DNA from: an uncultured delta proteobacterium | GTDB lineage: Bacteria; Myxococcota; Myxococcia; Myxococcales; Myxococcaceae | Reading direction: 5' to 3' | NCBI GenBank assembly: GCA_963771175.1 | Contig: CAVYSY010000036.1 | Coordinates: 32,001 to 96,000 of the forward strand | Length of the DNA stretch: 64,000 nt | In this document: positions 42,836-62,411 of the stretch, one piece after another | Position numbering within the stretch: the stretch's first letter is position 1 | Layout: the number at the start of each line of letters is the position of its first letter | The notes under the pieces: generated by a model | What the model saw: only the letters and a program-made list of their open reading frames with translations | Databases searched by the model: none | Told to the model about the DNA's origin: nothing | Made by a program: the position numbers and the translations under genes

Positions 42836-42986
42836 GTGCAAAGGCAAGCCCTTTCTTCTGGCCTACCCGGGGCAGCGCCCAGTGTGTCAGCCAGACAACA
42901 AAACATGGAAGTCAAGTCTTTCTCGTTCCACGGGTTGCTGGCCATATCGCGCTGGAGTCCCCCCCACAATCCGACGGAGAAGATCG

Positions 42987-44558
42987 ATGTCCTGGCTGCG
43001 TGTCATTGCCCTATCGGCCATGGTCCTGGCGCTGAGCCTCGGTACCACCCCCGCATCCGCCTCATCCTTCCGCCTCGCCAACATCATGGTGCGCGATGGA
43101 GTGGTGCTGGATGCGAATGTCTTTACCCCCGACACGCCGGGGCCGCACCCTGCGATCATCTTCATCACCAGTTGGGCGTTGCCCAACATCGAGTACCTCG
43201 TGCAGGCCCAGCAGTTCGCCGACGCCGGGTACGTCGTGCTCTCGTACACCCCCCGCGGCTTCTACACCTCGGGCGGTTACATCGAGACGGCTGGGCCCAA
43301 GGACGTCAGCGATGTGAGCGACATCATCGACTGGCTGCTCACCAACACCTCCGCGGATCCGGCGCGCATCGGCGCGGCGGGCATCTCGTATGGCTCGGGG
43401 ATCAGCCTGCTCGGCTCCGCGTTCGACTCGCGCATCCGTGCCGTGGCCGCCGTGAGCACGTGGACCGACCTCCAGTACTCGCTGCTCGCGAACCAGACCC
43501 GCCACCAGCAGGCCGCCGGGCTGCTGAAGCTCTCCGGCGTGCTGACGGGGCGGCCCTCGGCGGAGCTGCAGCAGATTCTCTCGGACTACTTCGACAACCG
43601 GAACCTCGCGGGGATCAGCGCCTTCGCCCAGGTGCGCAGCGCCGCGACGTACCTCGACCGCATCAACGCGAACCGCCCCGCGATCCTCATCGCGAACGCC
43701 TATGGCGACAGCCTGTTCGCGCCCAATCAGCTCTCCGACTTCTACACCCGGCTGACGGGGCCCAAGCGGCTCGAGCTGCGCCCGGGAGATCACGCCATCC
43801 CGGAGCTGACCGGCGTCCTCGGTCTGCCCAATGACGCATGGACCAGCGTGCACCGCTGGTTCGACTACTACCTGCGTGGCGTGAACACCGGCATCGCCGC
43901 GGAGAAGCCGGTCCAGCTCCAGGTACGTGGCCAGAGTGGCTACGAGGCCTATTCGTCGTGGAGTGAAATCTCGACGAGCACCGCGCGCTACAACCTGGGC
44001 GAGGTGAACTGGTGGAACGGCGAGGGCGAGCTCGTGTCGAGCGCGCAGACCGGCTGGAGCCGGACGGTCTTCGCGGGCGACGACACCGTCGCCAACGGAG
44101 GCATCGTGATGCTGACGAACGGCGCCGAGGCGCTCACGGGTGAGCCGCCGATCGCGTGGATTCCCGCGGTGGACCGGGACAACGCGGGCGTCTGGCAGTC
44201 GGGCTCGCTGACGAGTGCGCGCCGTCTGCGTGGGGCCGCGCACCTGCGCCTGACGGTGACTCCGGGCAGCTCCGGGCAGACGACGATCATCGCCTACCTC
44301 TACGACACGGACGCGCTCGGGACCGGGCACCTGGTGACGCATGTGGCCTACACGATCCGGGGCGCGGTGGCCGGCCAGGCCTACACCGTGGACACCGACT
44401 TCCCGGCCACGGTCTACGACGTGCCGAGCGGGAACCGGCTCTCGCTCGTCGTCGACACCGTCGACCCGCTCTACGCCGACCAGGGAGCGCTGTTCACCTC
44501 GGTGAAGTTCTCCTCGCCGGGGACCAATCCGTCCTACGTGTCGCTGCCGCTCAAGTAA
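42987..44558 (+). CDS. CocE/NonD (peptidase S15-like) alpha/beta hydrolase, secreted
   Basis: Signal peptide, RDGVVLDA, YTPRG, GISYGSG nucleophile, PGDH, C-terminal jelly-roll-like domain. Confidence 0.88.
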   Translation: MSWLRVIALSAMVLALSLGTTPASASSFRLANIMVRDGVVLDANVFTPDTPGPHPAIIFITSWALPNIEYLVQAQQFADAGYVVLSYTPRGFYTSGGYIETAGPKDVSDVSDIIDWLLTNTSADPARIGAAGISYGSGISLLGSAFDSRIRAVAAVSTWTDLQYSLLANQTRHQQAAGLLKLSGVLTGRPSAELQQILSDYFDNRNLAGISAFAQVRSAATYLDRINANRPAILIANAYGDSLFAPNQLSDFYTRLTGPKRLELRPGDHAIPELTGVLGLPNDAWTSVHRWFDYYLRGVNTGIAAEKPVQLQVRGQSGYEAYSSWSEISTSTARYNLGEVNWWNGEGELVSSAQTGWSRTVFAGDDTVANGGIVMLTNGAEALTGEPPIAWIPAVDRDNAGVWQSGSLTSARRLRGAAHLRLTVTPGSSGQTTIIAYLYDTDALGTGHLVTHVAYTIRGAVAGQAYTVDTDFPATVYDVPSGNRLSLVVDTVDPLYADQGALFTSVKFSSPGTNPSYVSLPLK

Positions 44559-44611
44559 CGGAGCAGGTGCCTGTTGGCGGGGCCGGCGGACTCGACGCCG
44601 GCCCCCGTTGC

Positions 44612-46778
44612 TCAGGGATGCGCGATGACGATGAGCGTTGACGCCCGAGCTTCGACGCACGTCATCACCTTGCGCATGGTCACGGGGTCCAGCGCACCGA
44701 ACGCCTCGTCGAGCACCACGACACTGGCCCGCTGCAGCAGCGCCCGGGCCACGAAGACACGGCTCTGCTCCCCATGCGAGAGCTGCCACCCGCTCTCCCC
44801 GACCAGTTGCATCAATCCCGAGGGCATCCGGGCCAGCAGCTCCCCCAGCCCCAGCTCCTCACAGAGCGCTCGGGCGTTTTGCAGATCCTCCTGCGAGGGA
44901 GGCCAGGCGCGGCCCAACAGCAGGTTCATGGCCAGCGTGCCGGACACCACGTGGTTCTCGTGGAACTGAGGAGCACTGGCGATCTGCGCGCCCCACCCGT
45001 GCGACGTCCAGGTCGCCATGTCCAGGCCTCCCAGCAACAACAGCCCCGAGCCCTGGCCCCTCAACCCCGTCAGGATGGAGGCGAACGTCGACTTGCCCGA
45101 GCCAGAGGGCCCCTCGAGCAGCACGCGCTCTCCCGAGCGAACCACCAGAGAGGCCCGCTCGAGCACCGCCCGTGGCGCCCCCGCGTGCTTGAAGACCAGA
45201 TCGCGCACCTCGAGCAGGGCCTGGGCCTTCGGGGGCGCCGCGCCTGGGGAGAGAGGAGAGGCGCGGGTCACCCTGCCCTTCTCGCTCTCACGGGCCGCCT
45301 CTCCCGAGGCGTTGGAGCGCTTCGCGGCATCCAGGATGGGACGCACGCTGTGAAACAACACGCGCGCGCCGCTGAGGGCCAGGGCTCCGGTGGTCAGCGC
45401 CGCCAGCGCGCGCGTCGCCATGAGCGCGGCCCCCACTCCCACGGCGATCCTCGCGGTCGAGGCTCCCGCGAGCACGCCTGGGAGCGTCGCGAGGATCGCC
45501 ACCGGGAGGAGTCCCCGCCTGGAGAGCGCCACCACCCGCGCCGTCGCCGCGTCCCACTGCTCGGAGGCCTCGGCATAGTGGGCCAGCTCATGGTCCTCCT
45601 CCTCGTGCCAGCGCGCCGGCAGCTCCTGCGCGAGCCGCGTCCGGTGGCCGAGCATCCGCTCGATGAGCGCATGCGTCATGACGACCCGCGCCTCCGTCCA
45701 CCTGCGGAAGCGTGAGCGACTGGCGCGCGATCAGCACCGCCAGCAAGCAGCAGAAGCCCCCCAGCACCAGCAGCCCGAGCCAGCCCGCGGGGCCGGTCAC
45801 CATCACGCTCGCCGCCAGCACCAGATCGATCGCCGCCAGGAGGCTGGTGAAGCTGCCCACCAGCGCCATCTGCTCCATCCCCGCGCTCTCGAAAGTCCTC
45901 CCGACGTACTCGCCAATTCCACCGCGGCGCGCCTCGTCCACGGGCAGCGCGAGCGCCCCCGCCAGCAGGTCGCCTGCGCAGCAGCGCGGAGAGGTCCATC
46001 GCCAGGGACCCCTGCGACCAGGCCAGCGCCGCCTGGAGCGGCACCATCGTCAACCCCATGAGGGCCCAGGCCCAGAGCCACCCATGGTCGAGCTGCCCAT
46101 TGAACGCGCCCCGTCCAATCAACCACCAACCGGCGAGCAGGCACACCTGGACGACCACCGCCAGCAGCAAGAGCAGGACCAGCCGCCGTCCGGCCCGCAG
46201 CGACCGCAGGTGATGGACCAGACGGGCTCCAGGTGGCAGCCGGAGCGTGCGCGCGGCGATGAGGTGGGTATTGGCGAGCTGGGCTCCCAGCAACGCCCGC
46301 CGGGCCAGGGTCCGCTGGGGTGCCGGCAGTCCCGCTCGCTCCAGGACGCGATCGGCCACGGGCCCCTGTTGCGCCCTCGACGATCGCCTGCACGGCGGCG
46401 GTCAGCAGGGAGAAGGGAACCTCGTGCGGCGTCTCATCCGGGGCGATGAGGTCCGCGGCTCTCCCCCGAGGGGGACACGCGAAGCAGTGCGAGCACCCTA
46501 CGCCCCTGGGTGCTCGGCACATCCACGAGGGCCGGGGCCGCGCGGCCCAGGGCACGTTCCACTTCGCCGTGGCGCGTGTAGAGCAACTCCAACTCGAGCC
46601 CCAGCGCATGGGCCGAGGCGTCCAGCCACGCCCCCACGCGGCTCGGGTCCTCGGGTACCGCGCGCGAGAGGACCGGGAGCGGATTGGGGAGCGGCAACCG
46701 CGCCGCACGCGCCAGCGCCTCCAGGGCTTCGCCCGCTCGCGCGAACGGCCAGGACACTGCGTCCAGCTCACCCGACAT
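44612..46778 (-). CDS. ABC exporter subunit with degenerate peptidase-like N-terminus (frameshifts)
   Basis: Stitched from several ORFs starting MSGELDAVSWP; TM region; GPSGSGKST, LSHGEQSR, VVLDEAF, IAH. Confidence 0.82.
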
Positions 46779-49474
46779 GAGCCACCCCCTCCTCCTCCTC
46801 CTCGTGTCGCTCGGAGAGCACGCCCTGCTCCAGGACCAGCCGCCTCCACCCCTCCCGCCTGGACAGCTCCCCCCGCATCGACGCCTCCTCATCCAGCAGT
46901 GCGCGGTAGTGGGAGTCCTCGCACGCCGCGAGCGCCTGGGGAGCCCCGTCCTCGACCAGCCTCCCGTCCTTGATGACCAGGACGCGGTCGAACGAGAGCG
47001 TCTCGGCGATGTCATGCATGATGCAGAGCAGCGTGGTCCCCTCGAATCCCTGTCGTGCCCGCTCCAACAGCGCCGTGCGACGGTCTCGCTCGAGTCCCCG
47101 GAACGGCTCGTCGAAGATGGCCAGCCGCACCCCTGGCCGGAGCAACGCCCGGCCCAGGCGCACCCGCTGCCCCTCACCGCCCGACAACAGACTGCCCCCC
47201 TCGCCCAGCCGGGTCTCGAGCCCCTGGGGCAGCTTGTCGAGCAACTCGATGAGGTCGGCCCTGTGCAGCACCTGGCCCACCCGGGGCAGCACCTCGGCCT
47301 CGTCGGCGCCATAGGCGAGGTTGTCCACCAGGGACTTGTTCCAGAGCGTCACCTCGGGCTCCAACCACGCCGTCTCCCGCCTCAGCCGCCACAGGGCCGC
47401 CCCCTCCAGCGGCTCGCCATCCACCTCGACGCGGCCCGCGGCCGCCGGTGCCAGCCCAGGAGGACTGCCCACCAGTGACGATTTCCCAGCGCCCGAGGGG
47501 CCCACGATGGCGACGTGCTCCCCGGGTTGAACCGAGACATCAATCCCTTGCAGGAGGGTGTGGCCCCCGGCCTTCACCTCCACCTGACGCAGCGAGAACC
47601 CAACCCCCCGAGCCCCTTCCACCGGTCGCTCCGTCTGTCCTGGGGTGGCCAGCGCGACGCTCGTGGACACCTCGTCCGGAGCGAGCAGTGGCTCCATCAA
47701 TCGGCCAGTGAACGACGAGGCGGCGGGGTACTGGCGCAACGCCTCGGCGATCTGCTTGCCCAGCGTCGGCACGGCGAGCGCCCAGTAGACGAGCAGCAGG
47801 ACAGCCCCGGGTTGTACCCCCTTCGAGAGGGCGTGCAGGACAATGACAACCGAGCCCCCGGTGGCGGCGAGGGAGGCGAGCGTGTCCGCCGTGGTGCTGC
47901 GGCGCAGCAACGTGCGGGCCGCGGAGATGAACTCGTGCAGCGGCTCCTCATGAGCCCGGCGGAGCGTCAGCTCGGCATGGTGCGCCCGCAGCGCCACGGC
48001 CCCGCGCAAGGCGTCGAGGTAGAAGCGCGAGAGCACCCCGTCGAAGTCCCGCATCCGGCGATCGGCTTCGAGCAACGAGCGCTGCGCGACGAGGGGGATG
48101 CCGAGCGCCAGCCCACCCGCCAGGAAGATCAAGGGGGCGCTTCGCGGAGCCAACCACGTCAGCCCCACGAGCGTCACGAACAGCTCGGCGGCGGCGCGCA
48201 GCACCAGGGCCGCGAGGTTGGGCACGTTGCGCACCATGTGGATGCCATGGCAGCGCTGGGCCATGTCCGAGATGAGCCGGCTGCGGAAATAGCTGTCACC
48301 CAGGCGTGGGATTTTGTCGAGGAACGCGAGCCGGAGGCGGAGTTCCAACCGCCGTCCCAGGCGGAGCGTCCCGAGAGAGAGAGGCAGCTCGATCGCGAAC
48401 AGCACGCCCATCAGGACGAGCAGCGTCACGACGCCGGCGATCCGCTGTTCGGTGGTCGTGAGATAACGACCCGCGTCGATGACCCCGCGCAGGAGCAGCG
48501 CCTCCAGGAAGCCGCCCACCGCCGCGGTCACCCCCATGGCGGCGAGCACCCTCGGCGTGAGCACCCCGTCCCGGCGCATCAAGGCCACGAGCTCACGCAG
48601 GGGGCGGGTGGGCGCCTCCTTCAAGACGGCCTCGAGCCCCGGAGACAGCGGGGGTTCATCCTCCCCGTGCTCGCCGCGCAGCCCCTTCGCCCGGATGCAG
48701 ACGACGCCGCGCAAGGTGATCTCCTCGGCGTCCGGCCCTCCCACCGCCGTCCAATAGGCGGGGGGAATGAGCTCCTCGGCGCGACCCTCGTCCAGGGCCG
48801 TGCGCACCTCGAGCAGGAGCTGCTCGACGAACGCCGCCGCCGTCTCGCCAGGCTGGAGGCCGTCACCCTCCACGAGCGTCTGCACCAACCGCACCGTCGC
48901 ATCCAGGCAGGCCAGGCCCTTCCAGGTGGAATCCCCGAGCGCCTCGGCGACGAGTCGCTCCGACAACGGCCCCTCGACGAGCTCGGACAGCCTGCGACGC
49001 AGACCCACGAGGAACTCCTCCGTGCCGGCCCACTCCCGGAACCCCTCGGCGGACACGGGCATCGCGTGCACGAAGCACCGGTCGAGCAGCTCGGCGGCGG
49101 ACACCCACCGCCGCCCCAGCGCCGGATCCATGATCTGGACGCGGTTGCCCCACTTCTTCCAGAGCACCACGAAGTGCAGGTTGCCGTCCGCGAGCCTCAC
49201 CACCACGATGGCCGGCAGCGCCCCGGTCTCCTCGAGGAGCAGGTGATCGCGCGGGAGCATGCCCTGCTCCGCATCCAGCCCGAGGCTGACGGCCAGCTCC
49301 TCGAGCACATCCATGGACGTGCCGTCGACGTCGGTCTGGCAGAGCTCTCGGAGCCGTCCATAGCTGACCGGCACGCCGGAAGCCGCCGAGCAGGGCCTTG
49401 AGGGCCGCCGGACCGCAGTCCATGGCCGACGTCTGGATGACTTCTGGAACGAAAAGACGTGGTGCACCCGCCAT
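46768..49474 (-). CDS. Peptidase-containing ABC transporter (C39 + TMD + NBD; frameshift near 49380)
   Basis: QTSAMDCG (catalytic Cys), HFVVL (His), IMDPALG (Asp); GPSGAGKSS, LSGGEGQR, IFDEPF. Confidence 0.9.
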
Positions 49475-49477
49475 GGC

Positions 49478-50674
49478 TCAGCTCCCCCCCTTCGGCGACT
49501 CCGTCCCGCCCTCTACCCGCAGGACCCTGGGTTGCTCCCGTGCCGGACGGTCGAGCCCCCGACCCAAGGTGCGAAGCACGAGCTGCGACGGCGTGGCCTT
49601 CCCCACCGCGACGTCCACGAGGCCAGGCAACCCATGCTCGAGCGGAATGCCCGGCGGCAGCTCATCCACCGAGAGCTCGACTCGCACCAGGCCATCGCGA
49701 GGCTCACTCGCCACCGCCACCACCGTGGCCTCCAGCATCCCGAACTCCGCCCAGGAGAAGCCCTCCAACCGCATGCGAGCCCGCTGACCCTCGCGGATAC
49801 GCCCCAGGGCCTCCGGGGAGAACTGCGCGACGACGCGCACGGGTCCACCGGCGACGATGGTCGCGATGGGGTCACCGGCCTTGAGCTGCGCGCCCACGCG
49901 TACGGAGCTCGTCTCGCCGAGGACGCCATCCGCCGGCGCTCGAATGATACGGCGCTCCAGCTCCTCGCGCAGGCGCTCCACGTTGGCGCGCGCGACGCTC
50001 TCGTCCGACTCGAGCCGGGCAATCTCTCCCTGCAGCGCGGCGAGGCGGGTGCGCCGATCGGTGGACTGAATGCCACCTTCCGCTCTCACCCGCGCCAGCG
50101 TGGCCCGCGCGGCCTGCTCCGCGGCCAGGGACCGCTCCAGCTCCGTATGGGACCTGCTCCACTCCATCTCGCTCAACACGCCCCGCTTCCAGAGCCGCTC
50201 GGTGGTGGACTCCTCCTCCTTGGCCCGCCGCGCGACCGCCTCGGCATCGATGAGCCGGGCCCGCGCCTCCTCCACGCCCGCGATCCCCTGCCCTTTTTGC
50301 TCCACCAGGCCATGCTGCTCGGCCTCGAGCTCCGCGCGCGCCGCCTCGAGCTGAGGCCCCAGTCCTTGAAGCACGGCCTCCGCCTCCGCTACCCGGCGCT
50401 CCTCCTGCACATGCTCCAGCTCGACGAGCACATCTCCCGCATGCACGGGGCGGTGAAGCTCCACCTGCGTCTTCACCACCCGTCCCGCCACGGGTGCATC
50501 AATGGCGTACACCTCGCCATGGAGCTCCAGACGCGCCTGCGCGCTGCGCTCGTAGACGATGATGCGCGCCTGGAGGAACCAGCCCCCCCAGATCGCGAGC
50601 AGCCCCACCGGTATCAGCCAGAGCGCCGGCCGCCCGCGCCCGCGCACCAGGGCGCGCCAGGTGCGTGGAAACAT
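49478..50674 (-). CDS. HlyD-family membrane fusion protein
   Basis: TM anchor, IDAPVAGRV, coiled coil, IRAPADG; start could be TTG 50701. Confidence 0.9.
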   Translation of the reverse strand: MFPRTWRALVRGRGRPALWLIPVGLLAIWGGWFLQARIIVYERSAQARLELHGEVYAIDAPVAGRVVKTQVELHRPVHAGDVLVELEHVQEERRVAEAEAVLQGLGPQLEAARAELEAEQHGLVEQKGQGIAGVEEARARLIDAEAVARRAKEEESTTERLWKRGVLSEMEWSRSHTELERSLAAEQAARATLARVRAEGGIQSTDRRTRLAALQGEIARLESDESVARANVERLREELERRIIRAPADGVLGETSSVRVGAQLKAGDPIATIVAGGPVRVVAQFSPEALGRIREGQRARMRLEGFSWAEFGMLEATVVAVASEPRDGLVRVELSVDELPPGIPLEHGLPGLVDVAVGKATPSQLVLRTLGRGLDRPAREQPRVLRVEGGTESPKGGS

Positions 50675-50900
50675 GCCTTCGACCTTCAAGTGGCTGGCCA
50701 AATCGCCCCCCGTCTCGACCGTGCCGTCCTGCGGATGGAGGGGGCCCGTTGGCTTTGTCAGGGAGAGTGACGCTCCGAGGGAGCGGCCTGCTCGTCCTCC
50801 AGGCAGGCGTCTCGCCCAGGCATTCCGGAGGTGCCTCGCGTCACAAGAACCACCCCCCTGCTCAGACCGTACGCGAATCACACCTGTCTGGAGCTCTCGC

Positions 50901-52712
50901 ATGAGTCAGAACGCTGTATCGGTTGATCCCCACGAGACGCTGTACCTGCCCCTGCGGCGTCGCTTCATGAGCGAGTACGTGACCACGCCCGAGGGCACCC
51001 GGGAGCTGCGCATCTTCTACGGCCTCAAGGAGATCACGATCGATGAGCCGGACCTGCTCTCCTTCGGAGAGAACCTGCTCAAGCAGGACGAGTTCATGGC
51101 GGGCAGCGCCACCCTATGGAGCGAGGGTGAGCCCTACCCCTGGGAGCGCGTGAGGGAGCTGCTCGAGGCGCTGCTGGACGAGGAGATTCTCTCGCGCGAG
51201 GCCCCGAAGCCCGCGCCTTCGGAGAGTGACGTTCATCGAAGCTGGATGGAGGCCGAGGCCCGGCGGGTCGCGCCCACCGAGCCCCTGTGGTGGAACCCGG
51301 ACTGTCCCCGGGTCATGGAGCGGTTGGTGGGGCGGCCGCTGGAGTTGGGCTTCCTCGAAGCGGTGATTCCGGTGCATCGCGTCGCCCACCCGGCGCTCGA
51401 CGCGGAGGGGCGCCATATCGGGGAGAGCAACGTCTTCCCCGACGCCATGCGAATGAAGCTTCCGACGGATTGGCGACCGTGCCCCTACCCGGGCAGCCGC
51501 TATCGGGACGAGGCGATGATGAACGTGACGGCGCTCAAGTCGATGACACGGCACTGGAAGTCCGTGTTGCAGGGGGTGCTCGCGGTGCGAGAGGAGTTCC
51601 TGCGCCACCATCCCCTGCTCCCGGACGGGCGCTGGCGGCTGGGGGATCTTCACGCCCTGTGCTGCGCCGTGCTGGCTCTACCAACCCTGCGGTTGATGCG
51701 CGCGAACGCGCCCGTGCCCAATGGCGAGCTGGATCCCGTGCTCTCCTCCATGTTCCGGGTGACGGACGGCGTGCGGATGGTGACGGCCTACATGCTCTTC
51801 CTCCCGGAGCTGCCGATGCCGTACGACACGCCCATGACGGCGGCCGAGCTGCTCCGCTTCACCGAGCAGGACAATCACTTCCTGTCGACGCGGGGCGTCT
51901 GCGCCGGTCCCCCGCACATGGTGGAGGAGTTCCTCGCGACGCTGATGGATGGCAAGCCCGTGGCGGGCGTGCCCAGGCCCGCGGAGGAGTGGGACGACGA
52001 AATCCCCACGGCGATGGATTACGGGATGCGGGGACTCCAGCTCTATTGCCTCCAGTTCAACCTGTGGAGCCACATGTGCCGCGCCTACGAGTCGATCCGC
52101 GCGGCGCTGCTCGACGTGGAGGATGAGCCGGGTGGAATCTGGAGCCGGATGCGCGCGCGTGTCGAACGCGATTGGGCGATGATCCTGCCCACGCGACTGC
52201 ACACCTCCACCCAGCGAGATTGGGCAGAGGCCCGCTACATCGAGATGTTCGATCAGGCCCAGCGCGGCCTGAAGGGCTTCCGGGAGGACGCGCTGCTTCG
52301 CTTGCAGGACGTGTTCACCCCCGCGAGGGACGAAATGGATGGGAAGACCCGCCGGCAACTCCGACAGATGCTCCGCTCGCTCGCGGGCTCGCCCCCGGGG
52401 GCCCGGAGAGACGCCCTCGACACCATCGCGGACGCCGCGGCGGAGTTCCTGGCCCTCGAGCGCTCAACGCTTCGCGCCCTGGAAGGTGTTCAGCGCCAGG
52501 TCAATGCGTTGCTCCAGCGCCCCCATCCAGCGCGAAAGTTCTCCAGCGCGGATCTCTCGCTGCATCTCCGCCTGCGCCAGGGCACCATCGGCGTGCTGCC
52601 CTACCTGCTGGATGTATTCCGGGATGAGCTGGGCATCGTCGTCGAGAATACGGAGGACGACACCCGCTGCGATCTGGTCAGCTCGCCCTACCAGCAGGTA
52701 GCCCAGATGTGA
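50901..52712 (+). CDS. 603-aa hypothetical protein, candidate RiPP maturase (RRE-like N-terminus, unknown catalytic domain)
   Basis: Intact ORF from ATG 50901 with GGAG RBS, between the exporter and the precursors. CDS is well supported; the function is inference. Confidence 0.85.
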   Translation: MSQNAVSVDPHETLYLPLRRRFMSEYVTTPEGTRELRIFYGLKEITIDEPDLLSFGENLLKQDEFMAGSATLWSEGEPYPWERVRELLEALLDEEILSREAPKPAPSESDVHRSWMEAEARRVAPTEPLWWNPDCPRVMERLVGRPLELGFLEAVIPVHRVAHPALDAEGRHIGESNVFPDAMRMKLPTDWRPCPYPGSRYRDEAMMNVTALKSMTRHWKSVLQGVLAVREEFLRHHPLLPDGRWRLGDLHALCCAVLALPTLRLMRANAPVPNGELDPVLSSMFRVTDGVRMVTAYMLFLPELPMPYDTPMTAAELLRFTEQDNHFLSTRGVCAGPPHMVEEFLATLMDGKPVAGVPRPAEEWDDEIPTAMDYGMRGLQLYCLQFNLWSHMCRAYESIRAALLDVEDEPGGIWSRMRARVERDWAMILPTRLHTSTQRDWAEARYIEMFDQAQRGLKGFREDALLRLQDVFTPARDEMDGKTRRQLRQMLRSLAGSPPGARRDALDTIADAAAEFLALERSTLRALEGVQRQVNALLQRPHPARKFSSADLSLHLRLRQGTIGVLPYLLDVFRDELGIVVENTEDDTRCDLVSSPYQQVAQM

Positions 52713-52786
52713 TTCGAATGAGAATCACAAGGAGTTCGTCCCTCGCTCCTCCTGTGTGAGGTGTCTCAGAAAGGAGGAGTAAACAC

Positions 52787-52897
52787 ATGAAGATCAAGAC
52801 GAAGATTCGGGGTGGTGCGCGCACGTGCTTCGGTGGCATCTTCGGACCCATCGTCGTTCGCCCCCCAGTCCTCCGACCGCCCATCTCCCTCGCGTAG
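52787..52897 (+). CDS. Putative RiPP precursor A1: MKIKTKIRGG-ARTCFGGIFGPIVVRPPVLRPPISLA
   Basis: Manual translation; strong RBS AAGGAGGAG; double-Gly leader shared with A2 and A3. Confidence 0.85.
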   Translation: MKIKTKIRGGARTCFGGIFGPIVVRPPVLRPPISLA

Positions 52898-52931
52898 AAG
52901 AATCCAGGGAGAAGGATCCGCGTTTGATTCA

Positions 52932-52967
52932 AGTCGCCAGTGGGCGGAGCATCGCCTGCTGGCGACT
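52932..52967 (+). terminator. GC-rich stem-loop after precursor A1 (copy 1)
   Basis: AGTCGCCAGTGGGCG-GAGCAT-CGCCTGCTGGCGACT, with only a weak T-tract. Confidence 0.6.
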
Positions 52968-53093
52968 GTGTCTTGCGGGGTACGGCTCGTCGTCCCACAC
53001 GGGCCTTTTGAAAACAACTCAGACAAAAATCACAAGCGCCACGCCCCATGCTCAATCCGTACGTAGCGCGTAGCGCTCAGGAGGAGCAAACAC

Positions 53094-53162
53094 ATGAAGG
53101 TCAAGACCAAGGTTCGTGGTGGTGCTCGGATGTGCAGCGGCGGCAGCGGCACTTTCTTCTAG
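53094..53162 (+). CDS. Putative RiPP precursor A2: MKVKTKVRGG-ARMCSGGSGTFF
   Basis: Manual translation; RBS AGGAGGAG-CAAACAC-ATG. Confidence 0.85.
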   Translation: MKVKTKVRGGARMCSGGSGTFF

Positions 53163-53212
53163 CCGCAGAAGTACCCGATGGATTCGCACTCTCACTCAGG
53201 AGGAGCAAACAC

Positions 53213-53278
53213 ATGAAGATCAAGACCAAGATTCGGGGCGGAGCTCGCTCGTGTAGCGGCGGCGGCACCTTCTTCTAG
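53213..53278 (+). CDS. Putative RiPP precursor A3: MKIKTKIRGG-ARSCSGGGTFF
   Basis: Manual translation; same RBS context as A2; forms the C-terminus of track ORF 53048..53278. Confidence 0.85.
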   Translation: MKIKTKIRGGARSCSGGGTFF

Positions 53279-53302
53279 CAGCAGAAGTACCCGTTGAATT
53301 CC

Positions 53303-53344
53303 AGTCGCCAGTGGGCGGAACATCGCCCGCTGGCGACTCTTTTT
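53303..53344 (+). terminator. Rho-independent terminator after precursor A3 (copy 2 of the stem-loop)
   Basis: AGTCGCCAGTGGGCG-GAACAT-CGCCCGCTGGCGACT followed by CTTTTT. Confidence 0.75.
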
Positions 53345-57650: not shown

Positions 57651-60600
57651 TCAGCCCTGCTCGTCGGTTTTCGGGTCGGAGGGAGCTGCCTCGGATGCCG
57701 GCGAACCGGCGGGCGAGGCGGGTGTGCTCCCCTTTGGGCGGCGAAGTAAATCATTCTTCACCGCGTTGATCTCGGCGTTGGCCCGCGCGTAGATGTCCTG
57801 AACGGTGTTCGACCCCGCCCGGGCCGAGCTGCGCTTGAGCGTGGCCAGTTCGGACGCCTGTCCCTCCAGGCGCTGCTGCTGCTCCGCGATTGCCGCATCG
57901 CGCTCGGCCAGGGTGGCCTGGAGGGTCTCGAGCTCGCTCTGCAGGCGCTCCACTTCCTCGGACAGCTCCAGCACGGCCTCGGAGTCCGATACCGGCTTGC
58001 GCGTTTCGAGCTGCTTGATCTTCTCCCGCAACCCGGCCCGCTCGCTCTCGAGGGCCTGGAGCCGAGCCCCCAGCGCCTCGGCGGCCTGGGCCTGCTTCGC
58101 CTTCTCCGTACGCTCGGCGTCGAGGAACTTCACCGCCTCCGCGGAGGCCGCCTCCAGCGCGGTCACCCGGCCCTCCAGACGGATACGGGCCGCGCGGGCC
58201 ACCGTGAGATCCGAGCTGAGCCGCTCACGCTCGGACACGAGCCCGGCCTTCTCCGATTCCAGCTTCGCGAACTGCTCCTGCACGGCCTGCGCGGAAGCCT
58301 CCCGCTCCCGGGCCTGCCGCTCGACCTCGTTCGCCTTGGACTCCAGCTCGGCCAGCTTCTCCTTCGCGGAGGCCTCCTGCTCCCGGGCCTGCTGTCTGGC
58401 TTCATCCGCCAAGGCCTCCAGCTCGGCCAGCTTCTCCTTCGCGGCCTCCAGACTGGCGGTGGTCTCCGAGAGACGGACCTCGAGCTGGCTCGCCGACTGC
58501 TCCGCCTCCGAGACCCGCTCCCGCTCCGCCTCGGTGGCCGAGTGGGCCCGGACCAGCTCCGCGCGTACGTCCTCGAGCTGGGCGCGGGTGGCCTCGACAG
58601 CCGCGCGCTCCTTCTCCAGCTCGGCCCGGGCGGCCTCGACCGCCGCGCGCTCCTCCTGGAGGGCGGATTCGAGAGAGGGCGCCTTGCCCGCGATACGCCG
58701 CGCCGATTCGAGCTGCACGGTGAGCAGCTCCGCCTGCTCGTGCTCCGCGGTGAGCCGGGCCTGGGCCTCGGTCAGCTCCGTCTGGAGGTGCGCGATGTGG
58801 GCATCGCGATCGCGCAGGCCCATGTGGGCTTGCTGGAGGGCCATCGAGGCCTGCTGTGCCTGGAACCGGGCGGCCTCGAGCTGTCCCACCTGGGCCCGCA
58901 GCACCGCCAGCTCCTCGTCCTTCCTCGCGAGGTCGTCCCGGAGCCCCTCCAGCTCCACCCGGGACTCCACCGCGTCGCGCTTCCGGGCCTCGCGCTCCGT
59001 GGAGATGGCCTCCTCGCGCGCACGGGCCTCCGCGAGCCGCGCCTCGGCCTCGCGCAGCTTCTCCTCGAGCTCGCGGGCGCGCGAGTCCAGGCCAGAGGCC
59101 CGGGTGGTCTCGGCCTCGTGCTCGGAGCGCAGGCGCGTGAGGGCCTCCTGCTGCTCCTTGGACGTGCCGCGCTCCCACTCCAGGCTCGACCGGAGCTCCT
59201 CGACGAGCTGCTTCTGCTCGACCAGGGCGACGCCGAGGTCCTTCCCCTCGCGCAGGGCCGTCTCCAGCTCCTCGCGCAGGGCCGCGGCCTCCTGCCGGGC
59301 CACCTCCAGGGCCTCGAGCCGCGCCCGCTCGCGTTCGTCCGCGCCCGCCCGGGCGGACTCCAGGTCCGCGCGCGCCTCGGCCAGCGACTGCTCCACGGCC
59401 TCGCGCCCGGTGCGCTCCGAGTCCAGCTCGCGCCGGGTCTCCGCGAGGGTGGCCTCCACCTGCTCGCGTCCCTGCTGCTGGGACTCCGCCTCGGTACGGG
59501 CCTGGGCCAGCGAGGCCTCCAGTGCTTCCCGCTCCCGCCGTGCCTCTTCGAGCTCCGCCTCGGTCCGGGCGCGCTGCCGCCGCTCGGTATCGAGGTCCGT
59601 CCGGGCGGTACCGAGCGAAGCCTCGGTCTGCGCCTTGCTCTCGCGCTCCCACTCCAGCTCGGCGCGGGCCGATGCGAACGACTCCTCGGCCTGGGTGCGC
59701 TGCTTCCGCTCGGCGTCGAACTCCGCGCGAACCGACGCGAGCGACTCCTCGGCCTGGGTGCGCTGCCGCCGCTCGGTGTCGAGCTCCGCGCGGACCTGCG
59801 TGAAGGCCTCCTCCGACTGCCCATGCACCTGCTGCGCGGAGTCGAGCTCGGCACGGGCGGAGGCCAGCGCGGCCTCGAGCCCGGTGCGCTGCCGACGCTC
59901 CGATTCGAGCGCGGACCGCTCCTGCGCCAGGGTCTCCTCCACCTCGGCCCACTGCCGCCGCTCCGATTCGAGCTCGGCCCGCTCCTGCGTCAGAGCCGCT
60001 TCCACCCCGGCCCGCTGCTGCCGCTCCCCTTCGAGCTCGGTCCGGGTCCTCGCGTTCTCCTCATCCACCAGGAGACGCTGCTGCCGCTCCGCCTTCAGCT
60101 CCGCCCGGGCCCTCGCGAGCGACTCCCGCGCCTCCGCGAGCTGCTGCCGCTCCCCCTCGAGGTCCGCCTGCGTCGACGTCCCCGCCTCCTCCAGCAGGGT
60201 GCGCTGATTCCGCTCGACCTCGAGCTCGGCCTGGACTCGCGCCAGGGCCTCTTCCAGCCGCGCCCTTCCCTGCTGTTCGAGCGCGAGCCCGGCCAGGGCC
60301 TGCTCTCGGGCCTCGTCCGCCTTCGCCCGCTCCTGCTGCTCGGCCGCGATGGTGCCCTGCGTCGCCTTCAGCGCCGCGTCGAGCCGGGCGATCGACTCCA
60401 CGTCCGAGGCCCGCGCCCGCTCCAGCTCGGTGAGCGTCGCCTCGGCCTCCACCACGCGCCGCCGTAGGGCACCACGCTCATCGGCCCACTCCTGCCGTTG
60501 GGCCTCCAGCTCGGCGAGGACGCGCGCCGCCTCCTCGCGCGCGGCCACCTCCACCGCCATCTGGTTCTCGAGCCCCTCGGCCCGATGCTGCTGGGCCTCG

Positions 60601-62411
60601 CGCGCGGCCTTCTCCCGAGCGGCCTCGGCAACAGCCGCCTCCGCCCTCGCCAGCGCCTCCGCGACCGCCTGCTCCAGCCGCTCGTCCGCGAGCCGGCGCT
60701 CTTCCTCGATCGCCGCCTCCAGCTCCGCCGCGGCGTGGACCCGCTCCTGCTCGTGCGACTCCAGGCGAGCCTGGGCCTCGTGAAGGGCCTGCTCGAGCTT
60801 CGCGGCCGCCGCCCGGACGTGCTCCTCCGCGCGCGAGCGGGCCTCCACCTCGGCCTGGAGCTGCTCCACCCCGGCGCGAGCCGCCGTGAGCTCCGTCTCC
60901 AGCCCCCGCCACTCGGCCTCGCGCGCGGTCAGACGAACTTCCGCGTCCCGCCGGCCCGCCTCCGCGGACGACACGCGCCGGGCACCGTCCTCCACCTCGC
61001 GCGACATGCGCGCCAGGTCCGCGTCGCGCGAGCGCAGCAGCTCCTCGGCCGCCTTGCGCGACGCCTCGGCCCGGGTCACGTCCGTCTTGAGGTGCTCCAC
61101 CGCGGCGAGCGCCGTGGAGTACTGCTCGGCGATGCGCAGCTCGCGCTCGCGGGCCGCCTCCGCCTGCCGCCGCAGGTCCTCGAGCTGCTCCCGAGCGCGC
61201 TCGGTGACGAGCCGGTCCTTCTCGCGCTCGACGCGCAGGCCGGCCATCTCGTCCTGCAGCTCGCGCAGGTGGGTGTACGCCTGGGTGAGGCGCTCGCGCG
61301 ACTCCTCCAGGGAGGTGTTCAGCTCCTCGCGGCGCGCCCGCTCCAGCCGCAGCGCCTCCTGGGAGCCCAGGGTCTGGATGTCCGCGTCCTTCCGAGCGCG
61401 CTCGGCGGCCTCCAGCTCCAGTCGCTGCTGGGTGAGGCGCCGGTCCGCGTCGGACACGCGCTCCAGGGCCACCTGCAGCTCCAGCTCGGTGCGGCGCAGG
61501 CGGGAGGACAGCTCGTCGCGCTCGCGGGTGGACTCGGGGGTGCCGCGCGCCTGCTCCAACTGCGCGGTGAGCCGGGCCACGTCGTCGCGGGCGATCTCCA
61601 GGGCGGGCTTGAGCTGGGTCACCTCGGTCTCGCGGTCGGTCAGCTCCGCGCGCAGCCGGGTGAGGGACTCCTTGAGGCGACCGGTGCGCTCCTCCCAGCC
61701 CTTGGCGCGCTGGGCCACCTCGTCCAGCTTGCCGCGCGTGAAGGCGAGCGGCTCGGGCGGCAGCTGCACCCAGGTGGGGTCCACGATGCGCGCCGGCTCG
61801 TGGCCGGCCACCACGACGAAGTAGGCCGCCTCGCTGCCGCGGATGAGGGTGCCGTCCACCGGGAGGCCCTCGCCCTTCTCGAAGGCGAGCTGGTAGCCCA
61901 GCACCGGGGACTGGGTGGCCACCTCCACGTGGGGGAAGTGCGGCGAGAGCGCGTCGAGGAGCTGCCCGTACGTGGGCGGCACGCCCTCCTCGAGGTCCAT
62001 GAGCTGCCAGAGCGCCAGCCCCGCCGCGTTGCGCAGGCCGCCGAGGAGGTAGCCCTGCCGATTCACCAGCCGCGCCAGCTCGGCGAGCAGCGTGGGTGCG
62101 CGCACGTAGGGCGCGAGGTCCGCGACGAGCACCAGGTCGAAGCTGCCGGGCTCGAGGTCGTCGTAGACATTGGCGCGGTAGCGCAGCGTGGCGCTGCCAT
62201 GGGCCTTCTGCGCCGCCTCCACCGCCTTGAGGTCCGCGTCGCAGGCCACCACGGTGCGGGCCCCGCGCTCCAGGAGGAAGCGCGCGCTCTCGCCACCGGT
62301 GGTCGCGACCGCGTCCACTTCGAGCACGCGGCGGCGTGCGAAGAGGCTCTCCGCGAAGATGTACCGGGGCAACAGCTCGCTGGTCCCCAGGCGGCGGAAT
62401 GTGGGATGCAT
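57651..62411 (-). CDS. Class I SAM-methyltransferase-like head fused to about 1350-aa coiled coil
   Basis: RY.FA...RRVLEV...VVACD...SFDLV N-terminus; E/A/R heptad repeats with 21-aa periodicity in the centre. Confidence 0.85.
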   Translation of the reverse strand: MHPTFRRLGTSELLPRYIFAESLFARRRVLEVDAVATTGGESARFLLERGARTVVACDADLKAVEAAQKAHGSATLRYRANVYDDLEPGSFDLVLVADLAPYVRAPTLLAELARLVNRQGYLLGGLRNAAGLALWQLMDLEEGVPPTYGQLLDALSPHFPHVEVATQSPVLGYQLAFEKGEGLPVDGTLIRGSEAAYFVVVAGHEPARIVDPTWVQLPPEPLAFTRGKLDEVAQRAKGWEERTGRLKESLTRLRAELTDRETEVTQLKPALEIARDDVARLTAQLEQARGTPESTRERDELSSRLRRTELELQVALERVSDADRRLTQQRLELEAAERARKDADIQTLGSQEALRLERARREELNTSLEESRERLTQAYTHLRELQDEMAGLRVEREKDRLVTERAREQLEDLRRQAEAARERELRIAEQYSTALAAVEHLKTDVTRAEASRKAAEELLRSRDADLARMSREVEDGARRVSSAEAGRRDAEVRLTAREAEWRGLETELTAARAGVEQLQAEVEARSRAEEHVRAAAAKLEQALHEAQARLESHEQERVHAAAELEAAIEEERRLADERLEQAVAEALARAEAAVAEAAREKAAREAQQHRAEGLENQMAVEVAAREEAARVLAELEAQRQEWADERGALRRRVVEAEATLTELERARASDVESIARLDAALKATQGTIAAEQQERAKADEAREQALAGLALEQQGRARLEEALARVQAELEVERNQRTLLEEAGTSTQADLEGERQQLAEARESLARARAELKAERQQRLLVDEENARTRTELEGERQQRAGVEAALTQERAELESERRQWAEVEETLAQERSALESERRQRTGLEAALASARAELDSAQQVHGQSEEAFTQVRAELDTERRQRTQAEESLASVRAEFDAERKQRTQAEESFASARAELEWERESKAQTEASLGTARTDLDTERRQRARTEAELEEARREREALEASLAQARTEAESQQQGREQVEATLAETRRELDSERTGREAVEQSLAEARADLESARAGADERERARLEALEVARQEAAALREELETALREGKDLGVALVEQKQLVEELRSSLEWERGTSKEQQEALTRLRSEHEAETTRASGLDSRARELEEKLREAEARLAEARAREEAISTEREARKRDAVESRVELEGLRDDLARKDEELAVLRAQVGQLEAARFQAQQASMALQQAHMGLRDRDAHIAHLQTELTEAQARLTAEHEQAELLTVQLESARRIAGKAPSLESALQEERAAVEAARAELEKERAAVEATRAQLEDVRAELVRAHSATEAERERVSEAEQSASQLEVRLSETTASLEAAKEKLAELEALADEARQQAREQEASAKEKLAELESKANEVERQAREREASAQAVQEQFAKLESEKAGLVSERERLSSDLTVARAARIRLEGRVTALEAASAEAVKFLDAERTEKAKQAQAAEALGARLQALESERAGLREKIKQLETRKPVSDSEAVLELSEEVERLQSELETLQATLAERDAAIAEQQQRLEGQASELATLKRSSARAGSNTVQDIYARANAEINAVKNDLLRRPKGSTPASPAGSPASEAAPSDPKTDEQG

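Follow-up and report, generated by a model that had tools for sequence, protein, structure and literature searches.

Within the window (the whole 64,000-nucleotide stretch that was analysed), which comes from an Archangium-like myxobacterium, we found a locus that is almost certainly a genuine RiPP system with a 603-aa protein as its maturase, and the gene set suggests a class of modified peptides that has yet to be characterised. The RiPP architecture is familiar, and the class-defining enzyme represents more than 1,100 sequence clusters without annotation or fold match (relatives counted at 50% clustering). There is a strong probability that the Arg/Cys pair of the core peptide is the target of modification. 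In the best reading of the chemistry, to which we give slightly less than an even chance, a stripped-down heme-thiolate oxidase activates Arg, which is then joined to Cys in a ring.

The locus is divergent, as a preliminary description had stated. The candidate maturase ORF, a member of an undescribed family (50901..52712), and the precursor genes lie on the plus strand, while all three transport genes assigned to the left side were found on the minus strand: an intact HlyD-family periplasmic adaptor of about 400 aa (49478..50689, PF13437), a C39-peptidase ABC transporter (PCAT; 46768..49474, PF03412 and PF00005) and a second ABC subunit with a degenerate N-terminal domain, a TMD and an NBD (44612..46778), which is split into five frame pieces in the assembly. 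A stem-loop lies 3' of precursor 1 (52932..52967, plus strand), with further copies after precursor 3 and after a paralogous precursor on contig C32, and an intrinsic-terminator-like hairpin of 16 pairs followed by a T run ends the maturase-precursor operon (53303..53338, plus strand). No sigma-70 promoter match was found at the locus, and no RNA holder was listed. The neighbouring S15/CocE peptidase gene (42882-44558) was considered as a cluster member and left out, because it is not a recurrent neighbour at related loci and the contig of one close relative diverges at 44598.

The C39 gene had been credited with an intact Cys/His/Asp triad, but as assembled the QTSAMDCG block with the catalytic Cys is out of frame with the His and Asp blocks. 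The single extra bases that break the ABC frames are missing from near-identical contigs obtained in 4 runs of 2 studies; when these bases were skipped and one placeholder base was added, frames of 901 aa and 757 codons resulted. Since 13 of 62 orthologous genes in this assembly, here and elsewhere, are split across frames, the frameshifts in the ABC genes are likely assembly errors. The C39 gene is intact in loci L002 and L020 and in close relatives, with the DCG, HFVV and MDP blocks all present in the L002 copy. The pieces of the second ABC gene share 67-85% identity with the intact 725-aa L002 orthologue, and the HlyD protein is 69% identical over 404 aa to its counterpart there.

Three tiny ORFs sharing MK(I/V)KTK(I/V)RGG-ARxC(S/F)GG had been reported, and all three were confirmed, each preceded by an AGGAG ribosome-binding site. 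Precursor 1 (52787..52897, plus strand) has 36 aa, with a 10-aa leader ending in RGG and a core that starts A-R-T-C and continues into a Pro/Val-rich tail; it is missing from 3 of 4 close relatives. Precursor 2 (53094..53162, plus strand; 22 aa, core start A-R-M-C) and precursor 3 (53213..53278, plus strand; 21 aa, core start A-R-S-C) are related by a 119-bp tandem duplication that gave rise to the latter. None of these genes carries an existing annotation. A search of the 9.83-Mb genome with the leader regex matched four short ORFs, and because all four adjoin a maturase-family gene, the precursor ORFs are not chance occurrences. In the reverse test, 8 genomes out of 301 contained the leader DNA pattern; every one of them carries the maturase gene, and 26 of the 31 matches are no more than about 10 kb away from that gene. 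Orphan precursors distant from the maturase gene occur in genome G236.

The preliminary description had proposed that homologues of the 603-aa protein be checked for adjoining MKxKTxxR(G/A)G precursors and C39 transporters. Such precursors adjoin a maturase homologue in 73 of 76 homologous loci, and the C39 exporter is present in 35 of the 76 (23 of 43 when only loci of 19 kb or more are counted); about half of the loci have no exporter within 10 kb of the maturase gene. C39 PCATs cleave after a double-Gly and export the peptides. According to one published account, double-Gly leaders end in GG, GA or GS with hydrophobic residues at -4, -7 and -12 (PMC10885120). The leaders studied here have GG and I/V at -4, Lys at -7 and no position -12, and many homologues end in AG or SG. 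No precursor matched the NHLP/Nif11 leader family.

The statement that the 603-aa protein belongs to no recognised family stands: Pfam (2025) and NCBIfam (June 2026), both at E<=1, and the PDB (2026) returned no sequence match. Nor could the core domain be assigned to a family when these resources were searched with the protein, its alignment and 20 distant relatives. Apolipoprotein matches to the protein were set aside as coiled-coil noise. Fusions of family members to methyltransferase and GNAT domains exist, and when one such fusion protein was used to search plasmids, only its methyltransferase part was matched. Regarding the motifs described as lacking, the statement holds for radical SAM, YcaO and LanB/C/M enzymes, which, like MNIO maturases, gave no Pfam or NCBIfam match at E<=1; CxxxCxxC and HExxH signatures are also absent from the protein. 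For P450s it holds only for the strict pattern; the protein does have a P450-type Cys pocket, in shifted form.

The N-terminal domain (aa 1-101; 50901..51203, plus strand) was modelled as an RRE-like winged helix. It matched ThcOx (Z 6.8, rmsd 3.4, 99 aligned), PqqD (Z 6.7, rmsd 3.0, 88 aligned), the PbtF RRE (Z 6.2, rmsd 3.2, 81 aligned) and TbiB1 (Z 5.8, rmsd 3.0, 77 aligned), while residues 1-100 matched best to a winged helix that is not an RRE (2xdv, Z 9.0), and the ESM Atlas gave weak winged-helix leads only. A complex model, run with heme but yielding no position for it, docked the MKIKTKIRGG leader on this domain with a score of 0.65 versus 0.01 for the best control; the mark applied is reached by 116 of 157 solved pairs but by only 2 of 215 mismatched ones, the runs had no less than 36% of their contacts in common, and the partner pLDDT was at least 41. 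In the model, leader residues 1-12 contact maturase residues 42-49, 87-96, 293-297 and 324-330, of which strand 42-49 and helix 87-96 are the predicted leader-binding elements of the domain. We thus predict an RRE that binds the leader, and the modelled docking may reflect memory of solved RRE-leader complexes.

What the core peptides have in common supports the Arg/Cys pair as the target. Of 166 unique cores, 154 contain a single Cys. Arg lies at most two residues from Cys in 153 of 161 cores (57±5.5 after shuffling), and in 92 of 94 long cores (24 shuffled), comparisons in which shuffling overstates independence since the cores are related by descent. The pair occurs as RC, RxC, CR or CxR; all precursors of a locus share one spacing in 21 of 24 single-enzyme loci, and the spacing clusters on the enzyme tree (28 changes versus 64 shuffled). 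Loci with this gene set are widespread among bacteria of soil and water, and in a sister clade the cores are free of Cys and end in Lys-x-Arg. Refining the earlier reading, we describe the targeted motif as Arg beside Cys, or beside Lys.

The KxR branch forms a fixed seven-gene operon. An APH kinase accompanies it at all 8 genome loci and at 22 of 22 evaluable metagenome loci. Yet 7 of 12 distinct cores, plus one whole 14-aa precursor, lack Ser, Thr and Tyr. Because the kinase accompanies cores without these residues, an oxygenase is implied. In a third, RRE-less clade, 4 of 7 members have PRMT-like genes next to them. Members share only about 25-30% identity, and many polar core residues are nevertheless invariant; C194, C334, D167, R171 and E175 are invariant in all three clades.

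The core domain (aa 104-372; 51210..52016, plus strand) was modelled as helical. Its conserved set comprises D167, R171, E175, C194-x5-R200, N208, D289-G290 and C334-A-G-P. Neither Foldseek against the PDB and viral models (nothing at E<=0.001) nor the ESM Atlas provided a usable match, and a wide structural search placed no known maturase fold among the matches listed (best Z 3.5), lists from which a fold family can be absent without being excluded. A clue came from Cys334 (codon 51900..51902, plus strand), a near-invariant residue and candidate heme axial ligand that lies within a P450-type F-x6-C-x-G-x6-E pocket (F327-x6-C334-A-G336-x6-E343). Only 18 of the 15,959 Cys in filtered genome ORFs have this F(-7)/G(+2)/E(+9) setting: 12 in P450s, all 3 maturase-family paralogs and 3 others. 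Among 101 family members, 100 have F, Y or L at -7 and 95 have E or D at +9. P450s also accounted for 7 of the best 50 matches in the wide structural search and gave its longest alignments; these superpositions cover 154-177 residues at noise-level scores (rmsd 5.8-7.5, Z 2.5-3.1) and end at the helix after C334.

Other features set the protein apart from P450s. The strict P450 heme motif, FxxGx(R/H)xCxG, is absent from it. Gly at -4 is found in only 14 of the 101 members and Arg or His at -2 in none, with 73 having Arg or His at -3 instead. PF00067 gave no Pfam match, and hhalign against 15 P450s was insignificant (probability 0.3-0.4%). No ferredoxin or reductase recurs in the family gene neighbourhoods, and no YqcI/YcgG domain was matched by Pfam in the protein. 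The second invariant Cys, C194, is unaccounted for by a P450 model. Its C-x5-R context is reminiscent of a phosphatase P-loop; since C194-x5-R200 lies in a modelled beta-hairpin turn, we did not assign the protein a role as a phosphatase.

We propose the following scheme. The ribosome would make precursors of 21-36 aa, whose basic 10-aa leader is predicted to pair as a beta-strand with the RRE of the enzyme, so that the core peptide may be fed into a modelled pocket near D289, R292 and C334. With Cys334 as putative axial ligand, a heme in the core domain would oxidise the Arg side chain at a guanidine N or at C-delta. The Cys up to two residues away might capture the activated Arg in a small Arg-Cys ring, or else stay beside a hydroxy-Arg. 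The C39 PCAT would then cut after RGG, as is established for PCATs, and ABC, HlyD and TolC components would export the short peptide. In the KxR clade, the same oxidation would act on K-x-R, and the APH kinase would phosphorylate the new hydroxyl. Precedents are AglA, a heme-thiolate Arg N-hydroxylase (PMC12866846), and hydroxylation by GntA followed by the GntI kinase (PMC12371840). That the chemistry is oxidative and heme-thiolate at all is a tentative view, held at just below even confidence. Doubtful, though worth stating, is the broader proposal of an undescribed and widely distributed family of minimal heme-thiolate oxygenases, whose fold would resemble no other apart from its P450-like Cys pocket and which would activate peptide Arg so that a neighbouring Cys or Lys closes an S-N, S-C or N-N ring; these enzymes would define a new RiPP class with RC, RxC, CR and CxR branches, a kinase-assisted KxR branch and an RRE-less branch in NRPS clusters.

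An oxidase might instead target Cys or Lys, by S-oxygenation, Lys hydroxylation or an MNIO-like Cys backbone rearrangement, with Arg as recognition anchor or late nucleophile; the product may be a metal chelator, with a diheme MbnH/MauG-like neighbour that would act extracellularly. The single core Cys is flanked by Gly in 131 of 139 cases (90 shuffled), the variable Cys-to-Arg spacing also fits Arg as a docking anchor only, and hydroxylysine kinases belong to the APH family. A diheme CCP/MauG-like gene occurs in 16 of 76 loci, including those of methanotrophs, but is absent from the window and from the other 60, and the neighbour proteins scored 105-111 bits against a cut-off of 363 for TIGR04039. 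One family would also have to oxidise sulfur in one clade and Lys in another with the same catalytic set, whereas no residue but Arg is shared by every precursor across the clades, and RRE-less members pair with arginine-methyltransferase-like (PRMT-like) genes (4 of 7 members). We judge this alternative unlikely.

Rather improbable, too, is a non-redox enzyme, with Zn or two-Cys acid/base catalysis, in which C194 and C334 with H163, D167 and E175 activate a substrate thiol or amine for attack on the Arg guanidinium carbon; loss of ammonia would leave an isothiourea (Cys) or guanidine (Lys) ring. The invariance of both Cys together with D167, R171 and E175 in all three clades, the equivalent placement of Cys in CxR cores and Lys in KxR cores and the lack of a recurring redox partner fit such a reaction. 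It leaves unexplained the kinase beside hydroxyl-free cores and the P450-type spacing, and H163 is lost in the RRE-less clade. That the family has already been characterised in literature beyond the coverage of our search is very unlikely: every named member is labelled 'hypothetical' or 'uncharacterized', and literature searches that covered few subscription journals gave no match to the family, those with its leader strings returning unrelated papers only. Finally, it is hardly credible that the 603-aa protein does not act on the core as a catalyst but binds, chaperones or senses the peptides or confers immunity, with the peptides leaving the cell in unmodified form or as disulfide dimers and serving as signals or microcin-like agents, even though a PCAT alone can mature such peptides and G236 holds orphan precursors, given an RRE joined to a 270-aa core with its invariant polar residues, motif spacing that follows enzyme lineage, fusions to tailoring domains and enzyme-precursor pairs that often lack a nearby exporter.

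The system, whose substrates are tiny, predictable and sequence-tolerant, could yield arginine chemistry of a new kind, a novel scaffold for heme enzymes and a 10-residue tag that could be moved to other peptides for cyclisation. The family is present in cultured myxobacteria (Myxococcus stipitatus, AGC43918.1) and, in one Myxococcus-type genus, in 22 of the 31 genomes sampled, where the KxR branch is its commonest form; this suggests an overlooked signal or metabolite in well-studied organisms.

With RRE-dependent RiPPs exported by C39 PCATs, the locus shares short GG-ending precursors and an N-terminal RRE on the maturase; it differs in its basic 10-aa leader, a predicted beta-strand binder often ending in RAG or RSG, and in a maturase core of no known family. 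The NHLM-type exporter layout (NHLM/NHLP; TIGR03796/03797/03794) noted in the preliminary description is borne out in gene content (C39-ABC, second ABC, HlyD) but as a distant likeness, with all scores below cut-offs: 173 versus 853 and 105 versus 709 bits for intact exporter homologues and 35 versus 156 bits for the HlyD of the window. Methanobactin-type clusters likewise export a Cys-containing peptide and recall the MbnH/MauG-like neighbours; they differ in having an MNIO (MbnB), and the diheme gene is not found in the window. The streptococcal and enterococcal Arg/Cys RiPPs (enteropeptin KGR, ryptide RRR, NxxC; PMC13361665) also tie Cys or Arg to a nearby residue in small rings, but through radical SAM enzymes, whose CxxxCxxC is lacking here. 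RiPP P450s (biarylitides/myxarylin, cittilins, atropitides; PMC10591300) resemble the proposed system in leader-dependent oxidative crosslinking, in the F(-7), G(+2), E(+9) Cys pocket before a helix and, weakly, in the structure of the helical core. They show no sequence homology, have a core of 400 rather than about 270 aa, carry the Gly(-4) and Arg(-2) missing here, and act on aromatic residues, whereas the present family has its RRE fused to the enzyme and Arg/Cys or Lys/Arg pairs in its substrates. Closest in proposed chemistry are the YqcI/YcgG heme-thiolate guanidine N-hydroxylases (AglA, DcsA, GntA), for which neither Pfam nor fold searches gave a link to the maturase core: AglA has a beta-sandwich fold and small-molecule substrates (PMC12866846) in contrast to the all-helical core modelled here, while Cys-ligated-heme oxidation of an Arg guanidine and, in the GntA/GntI pathway, phosphorylation after oxidation parallel what we propose for the family and its KxR clade.

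The GC-rich myxobacterial contig carries a 603-aa open reading frame, the candidate maturase (50901-52712, plus strand), whose nearest named homologues are from Archangium. Three small open reading frames follow on the same strand: precursor 1 (52787-52897), precursor 2 (53094-53162) and precursor 3 (53213-53278). As the preliminary description had it, they share a leader, MK(I/V)KTK(I/V)RGG, followed by ARxC. Each also has an AGGAG ribosome site. Precursors 2 and 3 constitute a 119-bp duplication. A stem-loop lies 3' of precursors 1 and 3 and of the precursor of a paralogous two-gene pair elsewhere in the genome (L077:10156, contig C32; 76% identical enzyme, 29-aa C-R precursor). That pair has no exporter and may use the one in the window, where HlyD (49478-50689), a C39-peptidase ABC transporter (C39-ABC, 46768-49474) and a second ABC subunit (44612-46778) all lie on the minus strand, again as first described. 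Two further window genes were recorded: a secreted-looking S15/CocE peptidase (42882-44558), convergent on the cluster and not conserved with it, and a 1586-aa protein with a methyltransferase-like N-terminus and a very long coiled coil (57651-62411), adjoining dapF and two response regulators.

The intact Cys/His/Asp residues initially reported for the C39 transporter did not hold up: in the assembly, the catalytic-Cys block does not share a frame with the His and Asp blocks, and the second ABC is broken into five pieces. Six single extra bases of this region are missing from relatives' contigs (rows listed from four runs in two studies; mostly 95-99% alike to the window). Omitting them, with one placeholder base, yielded frames of 901 aa and 757 codons. 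Among the rows listed, no indel fell inside the maturase. Close orthologues in the fetched loci were available for 62 genes, 13 of which were split across frames (by crude gene calls, and counting this region's own split ABC), so that the sequence comparison makes assembly error a likelier cause of the frameshifts than real decay. With about one-fifth of such genes split, apparent pseudogenes in this genome call for caution. Precursor 1 is missing from three of four close relatives.

The best 80 of 195 genome matches to the maturase gave 76 homologous loci. Using a leader regex derived from the first examples, we detected precursors at 72 of them, and a looser regex added one more (L008), which bears out the suggested co-occurrence with short leader ORFs. 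In the remaining three, the contig ends at or inside the gene, or less than 300 bp is left on the paralog's precursor side. As a control, the regex matched four short ORFs in the 9.83-Mb source genome, all beside a family gene. In the reverse direction, a search of 301 genomes of the order or phylum for the leader DNA pattern found it in eight; all eight carry a family gene, which lies within about 10 kb of 26 of the 31 matches. The other five are orphan precursors with the same RxC motif at four places in one genome (G236; L118-L121), far from any family gene (none within 5 kb), and are probably modified in trans. The suggested association with C39 transporters stood for 35 of 76 loci (23/43 among loci of at least 19 kb) and failed for the rest within the fetched flanks. 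HlyD was present in 37 (25/43); thus, an exporter nearby is common, not obligatory. The locus is almost certainly a RiPP locus. At 16 loci from two separate lineages (L002:7366-9192, L057:7657-9870 and 14 others), a large diheme CCP/MauG/MbnH-like protein (560-760 aa) is encoded next to the maturase; the window encodes none.

No match to the 603-aa protein was found in Pfam, NCBIfam or PDB sequences, in agreement with its earlier listing as of no recognised family. A word search revealed 390 relatives among 8,000 candidates, the named ones all 'hypothetical' or 'uncharacterized' among the 120 matches listed, and a profile search gave 1,114 representatives at E<=0.001 (207 at E<=1e-30). Family members occur in 46 of the 301 genomes, and the named loci extend to Gamma-, Beta- and Alphaproteobacteria, methanotrophs among these. 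Four of 20 distant relatives scanned carry tailoring fusions (three methyltransferase domains, one GNAT). Across 104 alignment rows from all clades, D167, R171, E175, C194, R200, N208, W219, G290, C334 (103/104), G336 and P337 are near-invariant, while S282 and R184 are specific to the Cys clade. Some loci hold three enzyme paralogs (L025, L026, L033), the Arg-Cys spacing differing between adjacent precursors in L025 and L026; in others, one or two enzymes are surrounded by an array of 10-14 precursor genes (L013, L014, L051, L070).

Exactly one Cys is present in 154 of 166 unique cores. Arg lies within two residues of Cys in 153 of the 161 cores with both (shuffled, 57 ± 5.5; maximum 79 in 2,000), and in 92 of 94 cores of at least 15 aa (24 when shuffled). 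Gly, and slightly Asn, are also enriched near Cys, the other residues tested are not. The Cys sits 2 to 44 residues past the leader, in RC, RxC, CR or CxR spacing. One spacing type is common to the precursors in 21 of 24 single-enzyme loci, and the types cluster on the 104-row enzyme tree (28 changes versus 64 shuffled, 0 of 200). These counts overstate independence, as relatives carry the same labels and the cores are themselves related. The Arg/Cys pair is probably the target. A few precursors with the same leader and Cys-free cores, His/Asp/Gly-rich repeats or Pro-rich (L052:9183, L065:9625, L002:9697-9788), may serve another enzyme as substrates or may bind metal.

The AlphaFold2 model of the maturase (pLDDT 92.5, pTM 0.91) places at residues 1-101 a domain resembling RiPP recognition elements (RREs): ThcOx (Z 6.8, rmsd 3.4, 99 aligned), PqqD (Z 6.7), TigE (6.5), MccB (6.2), PbtF (6.2) and TbiB1 (5.8). 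Its highest-scoring match is a winged helix from a ribosomal oxygenase, not an RRE (Z 9.0, rmsd 2.4, 84 aligned). A complex model with precursor 1 scored 0.65 versus 0.01 for the best control. It thereby clears a threshold that 116 of 157 solved pairs and 2 of 215 mismatched ones also clear; between runs, no fewer than 36% of contacts agree, and partner pLDDT is at least 41. The model may owe this score to solved RRE-leader complexes that it has memorised. In it, leader residues 1-12 contact strand 42-49 and helix 87-96, which form the usual RRE cleft, and contacts go on to 293-297 and 324-330, adjoining D289/R292 and C334. The core domain alone (aa 104-372, pLDDT 88) had no fold match among 48,161 chains (best Z 3.5) and none by Foldseek.

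In a wide fold search of this domain, P450s took 7 of the top 50 rows and gave the longest alignments (154-177 residues, rmsd 5.8-7.5); in a second look they took 6 of 50. Their Z-scores (2.5-3.1) are at noise level. The alignments stop at core-model residue 248-249, 17-18 past C334, and at P450 residues 454 (aromatase), 465 (human CYP51), 480, 438 and 478, presumably 16-17 past the heme cysteines (C437, C449, C463, C422 and C462). This agrees with the spacing at C334, F327-x6-C334-A-G336-x6-E343. All 17 P450 motifs taken from the source genome show the same F(-7)/G(+2)/E(+9) pattern; of the 15,959 cysteines in its filtered ORFs, 18 do (12 in P450s, three in family paralogs, three in others). 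P450 membership was rejected, since hhalign against P450s found nothing and the motif lacks Gly(-4) and Arg/His(-2); Arg/His instead stands at -3 in 73 of 101 members. These points also count against a heme-thiolate, as do the low Z-scores, C194, which it leaves unaccounted for, the failure to find a recurrent reductase in family neighbourhoods, and the lack of a heme position in the complex model. The maturase may work like a P450, though it is not one.

Precursors, conserved enzyme-precursor pairing and the Arg/Cys motif are present in the sequence. The predicted RRE would bind the leader and deliver the core to the C334 pocket. There, as we tentatively propose, the maturase would oxidise Arg by heme-thiolate chemistry, and the adjacent Cys would capture the oxidised Arg before cleavage past RGG and export.

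A sister clade (KxR clade; enzymes of 582-588 aa) came from the genome search. Its fixed, very conserved and apparently undescribed operon comprises precursor, HlyD, C39-ABC, second ABC, TolC, family enzyme and an APH-family kinase (L102-L108, L117, L122-L156; Myxococcus/Corallococcus-type genomes and soil metagenomes). Its precursors (14-20 aa) are Cys-free and end in K-x-R. Metagenomes scanned independently gave 35 loci, of which 13 end at the gene; in the other 22, each with 500 bp or more downstream, the kinase always lies 3' of the enzyme. The 13 precursors found there (11 loci) all lack Cys and terminate in K-x-R or K-x-R-A, and among the genome loci this is true of 7 of 8. Ser, Thr and Tyr are absent from 7 of 12 distinct cores and from the whole of the commonest, 14-aa precursor; the kinase would thus need a hydroxyl made by the family enzyme, unless it acts on N or a carboxylate, or confers self-resistance. 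A third clade (7 sequences) lacks the RRE. A PRMT-like methyltransferase adjoins four members; a confirmed NRPS is next to one, similar genes are next to two more, and JmjC/cupin genes also occur nearby. Products of the NRPS or PKS-like clusters at L109-L111 and L113, with PRMT-like, JmjC/cupin and CmcI-type methyltransferase genes, may contain modified arginine. The source genome has its own RRE-less member (L078:1848-5885, contig C50), which shares an operon with a PRMT-like methyltransferase; by eye, the N-terminus of the latter resembles an RRE. The gene for a 406-aa protein without a Pfam match is divergent from this operon, an MFS transporter adjoins, and no precursor was found there. 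We infer that arginine is the element common to all clades. Oxidation of Cys or Lys, with Arg as anchor, would suit the single Cys of most cores, and is rather unlikely beside this shared arginine.

A non-redox ring closure eliminating ammonia is unlikely, set beside the P450-type spacing at C334. An earlier description of the family elsewhere is improbable: searches of the open-access literature yielded none of leader, motif or enzyme, while RRE-mining supplements (PMC10036551) could list it. A non-catalytic role of the 603-aa protein, with its near-invariant residues, is very improbable. We conclude that this is a real, widespread candidate RiPP class, its architecture known in kind and its class-defining enzyme undescribed; the proposed chemistry is testable in one experiment. 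For its parts, there are precedents: PCAT cleavage rules (PMC10885120), P450 enzymes in RiPP biosynthesis (PMC10591300), Arg/Cys RiPPs made by radical-SAM enzymes (PMC13361665), guanidine hydroxylation followed by a kinase in GntA/GntI (PMC12371840), and the pairing of a guanidine oxygenase (SznF) with an Arg methyltransferase (SznE), N-hydroxylation being the usual entry to N-N bonds (PMC11705231). AglA, an Arg N-hydroxylase, would resemble the maturase in oxidising Arg with a Cys-ligated heme, whereas its fold is a different one (PMC12866846).
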